From Escherichia coli (GTDB taxonomy: Bacteria > Pseudomonadota > Gammaproteobacteria > Enterobacterales > Enterobacteriaceae): a DNA stretch of 64,000 nucleotides. The notes below the pieces were generated by a model that saw only the letters and a list, made by a program, of their open reading frames with translations, ran no database searches and was not told where the DNA came from. Location of the stretch: the NCBI RefSeq assembly GCF_016026235.1, contig NZ_CP065613.1; one strand, 5' to 3'. Positions 2,436 to 2,814 of this stretch are shown here, in pieces. The first letter of the stretch is position 1, and each line of letters begins with the position of its first letter. Made by a program: the position numbers and the translations under genes.

Positions 2436-2444
2436 TAATAAAAG

Positions 2445-2472
2445 CACGCCACCTTCGGGTGGCGTTGTTTTA
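2445..2472 (+). terminator. rho-independent terminator downstream of ytfP
   Basis: GC-rich inverted repeat cgccaccttcgggtggcg followed by a T-rich run ttgtttta. Confidence 0.6.
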
Positions 2473-2814
2473 TGCGATGTATCTCGCGATTTTTTTTTGT
2501 AACTTTTCCATCTTTTGCTTTTCTCTCCGAGCCGCTTTCCATATCTGCAATCGCATAAAAAACTCTGCTGGCGTTCACAAATGTGCAGGGGTAAAACGGG
2601 GGCACGCTTTGAACGGTGAGTATGAGTGAGGTCGGCTAACTTCCAGCAAGTGGCTATGAACAGCAAAATGGTGGTCGGGTTTGCTTGTTCTTACCGTTCA
2701 AGCCTTGCAACCGCTGAGAATAATGATGGTGGAATAGAGAGTTTATTTATCGCGGGCATAAAAAAACCCTTACTAACCGAAGCCCGGCGTTCAGGGTTAT
2801 TGCGCTAGAAGAAC

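Follow-up and report, generated by a model that had tools for sequence, protein, structure and literature searches.

Gene organization of the ytfP-ppa region

The stretch of DNA that was analysed, referred to here as the window, is 64 kb (64,000 nucleotides) long; it begins inside tamB and continues through ytfP and ppa into ytfQ and ytfR. The spacer between ytfP and ppa occupies positions 2436..2814 and thus has a length of 379 bp, in agreement with an earlier note on this DNA, which had put it at approximately 380 bp. The features of the region are the following.

1..2091: tamB; the window starts inside this gene
2094..2435, plus strand: ytfP, the left border gene; an ORF encoding a protein of the gamma-glutamylcyclotransferase family with a GGACT domain, annotated as ytfP in matching E. 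coli genomes
2446..2475, plus strand: intrinsic terminator of ytfP, with an 8-bp GC-rich stem, a TTCG loop and a T-run, identified by terminator scan
2476..2598, plus strand: retained upstream leader of chpSB, homologous to the ytfP-chpS intergenic region of K-12 and carrying the hairpin at 2473-2497
2599..2607, plus strand: left deletion junction, GGGGCACGC, 9 nt that do not align to K-12
2608..2732, plus strand: chpB relic, equivalent to chpB codons 7-49, identified by blastn, tblastn and a shuffle test
2727..2737, plus strand: right deletion junction at a TGGTGG direct repeat, placed by a second blastn HSP that aligns the window from 2727 onwards with the K-12 locus (L001) from 1833 onwards
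2738..2814, minus strand: chpB-ppa intergenic segment with the ppa terminator, defined by K-12 alignment and fold
2815..3345, minus strand: ppa (inorganic pyrophosphatase), the right border gene, assigned as an ORF and by annotation in matching genomes
beyond ppa: ytfQ and ytfR

YtfP matches the Pfam family GGACT with E=1.2e-28. The terminator of its gene is formed by the hairpin ACGCCACC-TTCG-GGTGGCGT at 2446-2465, which is followed by a T-run and corresponds to the terminator hairpin that the earlier note had seen in the spacer. The same 26-30 nt are present, with 96-100% identity, 3' of ytfP in dozens of genera, including those in which the ytfP-ppa site is empty. On this comparative basis, the ytfP terminator is to be regarded as ancestral spacer sequence that is conserved across Enterobacteriaceae. 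At the other end of the spacer, the ppa terminator has its stem at 2765-2770 / 2793-2798 and a minus-strand U-run from 2764-2760. The fold energy of this hairpin is no better than that of shuffled sequences, and its assignment as a terminator is therefore based on conservation: a homologous hairpin is seen at the empty sites of C. amalonaticus and Raoultella. The chpB-ppa intergenic block and the start of ppa together share 95% identity with K-12 (129/136).

A second terminator-like hairpin, TGCGATGTATCTCGCG followed by T9, is located at 2473-2497, straight after the ytfP terminator. It has a counterpart in K-12 (L001 1074-1089) and none in the empty-site species, and it appears to belong to the cassette side of the spacer.

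In the K-12-like RefSeq genome that served as reference (locus L001), the gene order is tamB, ytfP, chpS, chpB, ppa (minus strand) and ytfQ, and the annotated ytfP-ppa spacer is 886 bp. The published spacings for K-12 are 211 bp between ytfP and chpS-chpB and 79 bp between chpS-chpB and ppa (PMC5120126). Both the RefSeq annotation and this publication support the gene order that had been given for K-12, with chpS and chpB between ytfP and ppa. In L001, chpS occupies positions 1248-1499 and chpB positions 1493-1843; K-12 ChpB matches the Pfam family PemK_toxin at 1e-25 and K-12 ChpS matches MazE_antitoxin. An inverted repeat at L001 1203-1247, just 5' of the chpS ATG, is operator-like and may constitute the chpSB operator. 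A sigma-70 scan of the K-12 cassette gave no usable consensus site, and the position of the chpSB promoter was not found.

A chpB relic between two deletions

The alignment of the spacer with K-12, which had been proposed as a check, confirmed that no functional chpSB is present, but it did not support the reading of the spacer as a bare gap, since a degraded chpSB cassette was found in it. About 120 bp of the cassette leader remain, with GGGGTAAAACG (2588-2598) as their 3' end. The block made up of the end of ytfP, the terminator and the leader shows 87% identity with K-12 (191/219), and the leaders of some chpSB+ strains (H55-57, L002) match that of the window at 100%. The leader is not present in the empty-site species, and can in part be aligned, at 70-75%, to the leaders of chpSB+ Enterobacter and Lelliottia and to the relic of C. 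sedlakii.

Taking K-12 as reference, the left deletion covers about 300-312 bp, comprising the operator-like inverted repeat, the counterpart of which is missing from the window, the RBS, the whole of chpS and chpB codons 1-6. Direct repeats of GGGGTAAA and of GGTAAA are present at the K-12 sites of this deletion; since the 9 junction nucleotides (2599-2607) match nothing, the deletion could not be pinned to a microhomology at either of them.

Next to this junction, window 2608..2732 aligns with nucleotides 19-145 of K-12 chpB, with 92/127 identical positions (72%; pairwise blastn E=2e-14). In a shuffle test against the K-12 cassette, the relic reached a local score of 71 versus 17.5 +/- 2.2 for the shuffles, none of which (0/2000) attained the observed score (z=24). 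In tblastn, ChpB residues 15-42 align to 2631..2714, across an in-frame stop. Read in the chpB frame, the relic contains a TGA stop at 2617-2619, in the position of Gly10, a 1-nt deletion near 2621, a TAA stop at 2637-2639, in the position of Phe17, and another 1-nt deletion near 2677. The right deletion, with TGGTGG direct repeats at its bounds, covers about 200 bp corresponding to chpB codons ~50-112, and its junction leads into the last chpB codons, which read ATG GTG GAA TAG versus GTG GTG GAA TAA in K-12. Cassette-derived sequence thus makes up about 260-275 bp of the 379-bp spacer, between the two terminators. The frame-corrected relic peptide, short and heavily damaged as it is, gave no Pfam match at E<=1, and our claim of homology therefore rests on the DNA-level comparison with chpB together with synteny.

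Compared with the chpS-chpB operon (chpBI/chpBK) of K-12, then, the window shares the chromosomal site, the leader, the downstream flank and chpB codons 7-49, but it lacks chpS, the operator-like repeat and chpB codons 1-6 and ~50-112, and what remains of chpB is 72% identical and interrupted by stops and frameshifts.

Absence of a functional toxin-antitoxin module

No intact ORF of the PemK/MazF type or of the MazE type is present in the spacer. The statement that the spacer holds no ORF resembling a MazF/PemK-type toxin is thus correct for intact ORFs, but it overlooked the homology of 2608..2732 to chpB. Similarly, a chpBS homologue within the spacer had been named as the observation that would speak against the absence of the module; such a homologue does exist in the literal sense, but it is only a fragmentary, dead chpB. 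When K-12 ChpS and ChpB were compared by tblastn with the whole 64-kb window, the result was one weak ChpB match, located inside the spacer, and nothing more; similarity to ChpS was detected neither in the spacer nor in the 64-kb window (best E=1.5). The conclusion that this strain is without the module holds in the sense that none is functional at the locus, its scope being this locus and the window.

The individual components of such a module point in the same direction. In the case of the toxin gene, which should encode a PemK/MazF domain of about 110 aa, codons 7-49 and the last 3-4 codons are left, with two stops and two frameshifts. The antitoxin gene, which should encode a MazE/AbrB-type protein and be located upstream of the toxin gene and overlap it, has been deleted entirely. 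As for an autoregulated promoter with a palindromic operator, the inverted repeat that may represent this operator falls inside the left deletion. The deletion of this repeat suggests that the chpSB promoter has been lost, and a sigma-70 scan of window 2300-3000 gave no consensus-like site. With a permissive E-value, an Rfam scan of 2300-2950 returned no family; a chance match to the S15 leader within ppa was below threshold (16.8 vs 39.5 bits). In the window, mechanical ORF calling of the spacer yields ORFs of 56 and 60 aa, which other relic alleles either lack or have in shortened form.

The window allele is not a functional member of the MazEF/ChpSB family. Most likely the relic does nothing, being enclosed by two terminators and deprived of both the operator-like repeat and the promoter-proximal region. 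Strains carrying the relic allele, those of the B lineage (BL21/C41) included, are natural chpSB nulls; the practical value of the finding is small. Annotation pipelines leave the relic unmarked, and RefSeq shows nothing in the spacer of identical alleles.

Distribution of relic and intact alleles in E. coli

A collection of 5,426 complete E. coli genomes, without Shigella, was screened with the relic (2599-2745) as query, and 5,422 of the genomes contain a single matching place. In 3,098 genomes the query matches an annotated chpB at ~72% (intact type), and in 2,324 genomes it matches, with at least 80% identity, a sequence in which nothing is annotated (relic allele); 1,527 of the latter matches have at least 99% identity and 690 have 90-95%. 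Intact and relic alleles thus account for 57% and 43%, respectively, and intermediates between them occur in none of the 5,426 genomes. The whole spacer could be aligned over at least 80% of its length, at one place, in 2,320 genomes. The relic of E. coli B derivatives, such as C41(DE3), is identical to that of the window.

These counts bear out the earlier description of the locus as variable, which had also been published in 2013 (PMC3735183). According to the passages on this locus in that paper, the ytfP-ppa site in 47 genomes contains chpBS in 53%, esiB in 15% and neither in 32% of the cases (Pastorello et al., mBio 2013, PMC3735183). In our collection of 5,426 genomes the corresponding values are 57% for chpB, 3.5% for esiB (188 genomes) and about 39% for neither, and the window represents the 'neither' state of the published scheme. 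In the passages on the locus, this third state is the absence of both genes, with no chpB remnant mentioned, whereas the 'neither' allele of the window holds a chpB relic (PMC3735183). The ChpB-ChpS orthologous group has furthermore been reported to be significantly associated with phylogroup B1 (PMC5422975).

Three more E. coli alleles were aligned to the spacer of the window, two of them at 94-95% and the third, which lies behind an esiB insertion, at 89%. The same two junctions are present in all six relic alleles examined, i.e. those of four E. coli, of E. albertii and of another non-coli Escherichia, which indicates that the relic has a single origin. A clean empty site was encountered in none of the E. 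coli genomes examined. The presence of a leader identical to that of the window in chpSB+ strains implies that recombination breaks linkage inside the spacer, and that the flanks shuffle independently of the state of the cassette. The same strains (H55-57, L002) led us to reject a model in which the locus has two haplotypes that are deeply diverged and in full linkage.

The insertion of esiB, which encodes a Sel1-repeat, secretory IgA-binding protein, at the ytfP-ppa locus is described in the passages of PMC3735183 mentioned above. In GN02323 (L005/L088; L088 13103-15137), the sole esiB allele that we inspected, esiB separates ytfP from the chpB relic, with an extra copy of the ytfP terminator hairpin at its border; this allele keeps the relic. 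A separate observation concerns the strain itself. Over 20 kb (window 1-20000), its best match among the 5,426 genomes is 98.5-98.6% (E. coli B, C and others), and its spacer is identical in about 1,500 genomes; the collection thus has no close representative of the strain, and the lineage of the window could be mosaic or poorly sampled, or might belong to Shigella.

The ytfP-ppa site in other species

With YtfP as query and one genome per species, 80 loci were collected, in each of which ppa, ChpS and ChpB were located. Empty ytfP-ppa spacers of 99-170 bp, consisting of the ytfP terminator and the ppa terminator only, are found in many Citrobacter, Enterobacter, Klebsiella, Kluyvera and Pluralibacter and in Salmonella diarizonae. 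Intact chpSB at exactly this site is present in four non-coli lineages of Escherichia (L008, L009, which is E. whittamii, L010 and L012) and, beyond Escherichia, in Lelliottia, Enterobacter asburiae, Kluyvera genomosp. 1, two Pseudocitrobacter and strain RIT691. The relic was found, with unchanged junctions, in L013, the type strain of E. albertii (87% identity), and at 96% identity in L011, which is labelled E. coli, yet differs from the window by 29% at the four-fold sites of tamB. The presence of intact chpSB at this site in other lineages, together with a spacer that is longer than the empty ones, indicates that the cassette was present in early Escherichia and that the window allele is a derived loss.

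At codon positions 1+2, the intact chpB/chpS genes (L001 vs L008-L012) differ by 2.4-6%, versus 0.7-1.1% for tamB, i.e. they change about 3-6 times faster, although their four-fold divergence is similar; this indicates that purifying selection on the intact module is weak.

Pattern and age of the decay

When chpB codons 7-48 are compared, the relic has 70-73% identity with each of the Escherichia chpB genes and only 47-59% with those of other genera, which shows that it descends from an Escherichia-type gene. When six relics were compared with five intact Escherichia chpB genes, fixed differences were observed at 25 of 122 sites, distributed over the codon positions as 11/7/7. Between functional chpB pairs, 60-75% of the differences are at third positions, and the pattern of the relic has a binomial P=0.001 against 0.6. 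At 22 of the 25 sites, the intact state is also the one seen in outgroup genera. The even spread over codon positions and the fact that the outgroups side with the intact genes argue for neutral decay on the stem branch of the relic. Polymorphism among the relic alleles is distributed over the codon positions as 6/7/10. The sequence has the properties of a pseudogene: homology to chpB at a syntenic position, and a non-coding pattern of substitution that is derived on the relic branch.

The stem of the relic has a length of about 0.24 substitutions per site (Jukes-Cantor), and E. coli and E. albertii differ at 36% of the four-fold sites of tamB, equivalent to a corrected pairwise value of 0.49. 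On about 120 sites and with an assumed clock, the relic stem is about as long as the neutral divergence that each lineage has accumulated since E. coli and E. albertii split; on the same sites and clock, the gene may have died at about the time when the genus radiated, or earlier.

The divergence of the relics from that of the window is lower than at the four-fold sites of tamB: 4% vs 29% for L011 and 13% vs 36% for E. albertii. The four-fold sites of ytfP are under-diverged to a similar extent (about 11% vs 29-36% in tamB). The simplest reading of this low divergence between species would be gene flow via the highly conserved flanks of the ytfP-ppa site; alternatively, it might reflect constraint. 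In the case of the intact genes, the four-fold divergence of chpS and chpB between Escherichia species is 13-23%, and that of tamB 18-24%; together with the fairly high change at codon positions 1+2, these values agree with a module that has been inherited vertically and is under weak purifying selection. We also observed that window 1950-3700, from the end of tamB to the ppa-ytfQ intergenic region, is 95-99% identical to L011 and L013, and that its flanks are 86-92% identical.

Origin of the 379-bp spacer

Taken together, we consider it very probable that the 379-bp spacer is what is left of a now dead chpS-chpB (MazE/MazF-type) cassette that was once located at this site, as it is in K-12 today. 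A deletion of about 300 bp would have taken the operator-like repeat, the whole of chpS and the first chpB codons, and a deletion of about 200 bp between the TGGTGG direct repeats would have taken chpB codons ~50-112, which would leave codons 7-49 and the final few codons of chpB behind about 120 bp of leader. These leftovers would then have drifted neutrally, acquiring stops, frameshifts and a nucleotide divergence of about 28% from intact chpB. From what is known of toxin-antitoxin biology, the toxin was presumably inactivated no later than the antitoxin was lost, since losing the antitoxin first would be toxic. As for the relic itself, it is probably old, roughly of the age of the genus, and homologous recombination through the ytfP and ppa flanks may have carried it to other strains and other species of Escherichia.

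Other explanations can be envisaged. If the lineage had never held chpSB, the 379 bp would be ordinary intergenic DNA. This would agree with the lack of an intact toxin or antitoxin ORF, with the absence of RefSeq annotation from the spacer of identical alleles, and with the published account, the passages of which on this locus treat such strains as being without both genes (PMC3735183). However, ordinary intergenic DNA would not be expected to show significant homology to chpB or to keep the leader of the cassette, and the true empty spacers found elsewhere measure 99-170 bp, without leader or chpB fragment, as opposed to 379 bp in the window; we therefore regard an original empty site as extremely improbable. 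It is also conceivable that the relic stems from a divergent chpB-like cassette that was acquired separately and does not derive from the ancestral insertion represented in K-12. The site does take other cargo repeatedly (Hcp fusion, MCP, RelE/HTH, esiB), and the relic has only 70-73% identity to every Escherichia chpB, without intermediates among 5,422 genomes. Yet the chpB genes of other genera are much more distant still, the leader and the downstream flank are the same as in K-12, the differences are uniform over the codon positions and derived on the relic branch, as decay predicts, and a plasmid collection contained no closer chpB/pemK relative, the only matches being mis-filed chromosomal sequences. 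A separate acquisition is in our opinion improbable.

Alternatively, the leader and chpB fragment might have been exapted and be in use today: they could, for example, encode a small RNA or a small protein, or serve to space or insulate the convergent terminators of ytfP and ppa. A function would explain why the relic has persisted for so long in about 43% of E. coli, and the junctions kept fixed across species, as well as a between-species divergence below that of the tamB four-fold sites, could be seen in the same light. On the other hand, the ORFs are not conserved among alleles, the scans of the spacer region revealed neither an Rfam family nor a promoter-like site, polymorphism among the alleles affects all codon positions, and the four-fold sites of ytfP are equally under-diverged, which points to gene flow across the locus and not to constraint on the relic. 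Exaptation therefore seems very improbable to us. A different question is how decayed and intact forms came to coexist. Both forms occur in E. coli; the intact form is found in addition in E. whittamii and three other non-coli lineages, and the relic in E. albertii and one more lineage. This might be a very old trans-species polymorphism that is held at intermediate frequency (57% vs 43% in E. coli) by balancing or frequency-dependent selection on the toxin-antitoxin system, and not the outcome of drift and recombination; we think this unlikely, but if it were true, a benefit such as phage defence or anti-addiction might be balanced against a cost.

Relation to other decaying toxin-antitoxin modules

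The chpBS / esiB / neither polymorphism is already known. The finding is an ordinary one, to which the relic contributes a small detail. What is added, under our preferred reading of the spacer as a dead cassette, is that the 'neither' allele is a chpB relic of single origin, that the esiB-bearing allele of GN02323 has the same relic, that a clean empty site is absent among the E. coli genomes examined, and that the relic is common to other Escherichia species. For the evolution of toxin-antitoxin systems, this would mean that a chromosomal cassette died once, long ago, and that its remains, present in about 43% of E. coli and in sister species, still segregate against the intact form.

A similar situation has been described for chromosomal type II systems such as ccdO157, which has a fixed location and is intact in some strains and affected by deletions or nonsense mutations in others (PMC7167474, citing Mine et al. 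2009 and Fiedoruk et al. 2015). In the passages of that paper dealing with ccdO157, this type of decay is read as progressive loss under relaxed selection (PMC7167474). Although ccdO157 belongs to a different toxin-antitoxin family, both it and chpSB have decayed alleles beside intact ones at a conserved site. Set against ccdO157 as it is presented in those passages, the chpB relic is distinguished by its single origin, its frequency of about 43% and its occurrence in both E. albertii and another non-coli Escherichia. The relic fits the view that chromosomal toxin-antitoxin modules are often dispensable and decaying, and it opens no new question.

Other occupants of the ytfP-ppa site

Remnants of chpSB of independent origin were noticed in two other species. 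In Citrobacter sedlakii (L030 3430-3471), ChpB residues 63-76 can be recognized within a spacer of 347 bp, and in Enterobacter cloacae DSM 26481 (L036 5100-5168), a segment equivalent to ChpS residues 9-31 adjoins ppa behind other cargo. Comparison of these loci suggests that the chpSB cassette may have decayed repeatedly at the ytfP-ppa site in other genera.

Throughout the Enterobacteriaceae, small cargo has repeatedly settled between ytfP and ppa. Such cargo was recorded at L019, L020 and L033 (Citrobacter / S. arizonae), at L044, L049 and L057, at L036 and L054, and at L083. It includes an Hcp-domain fusion protein of 375-403 aa with a small downstream ORF, a methyl-accepting chemotaxis protein, a RelE-like toxin together with an HTH protein, and several ORFs without a Pfam match.
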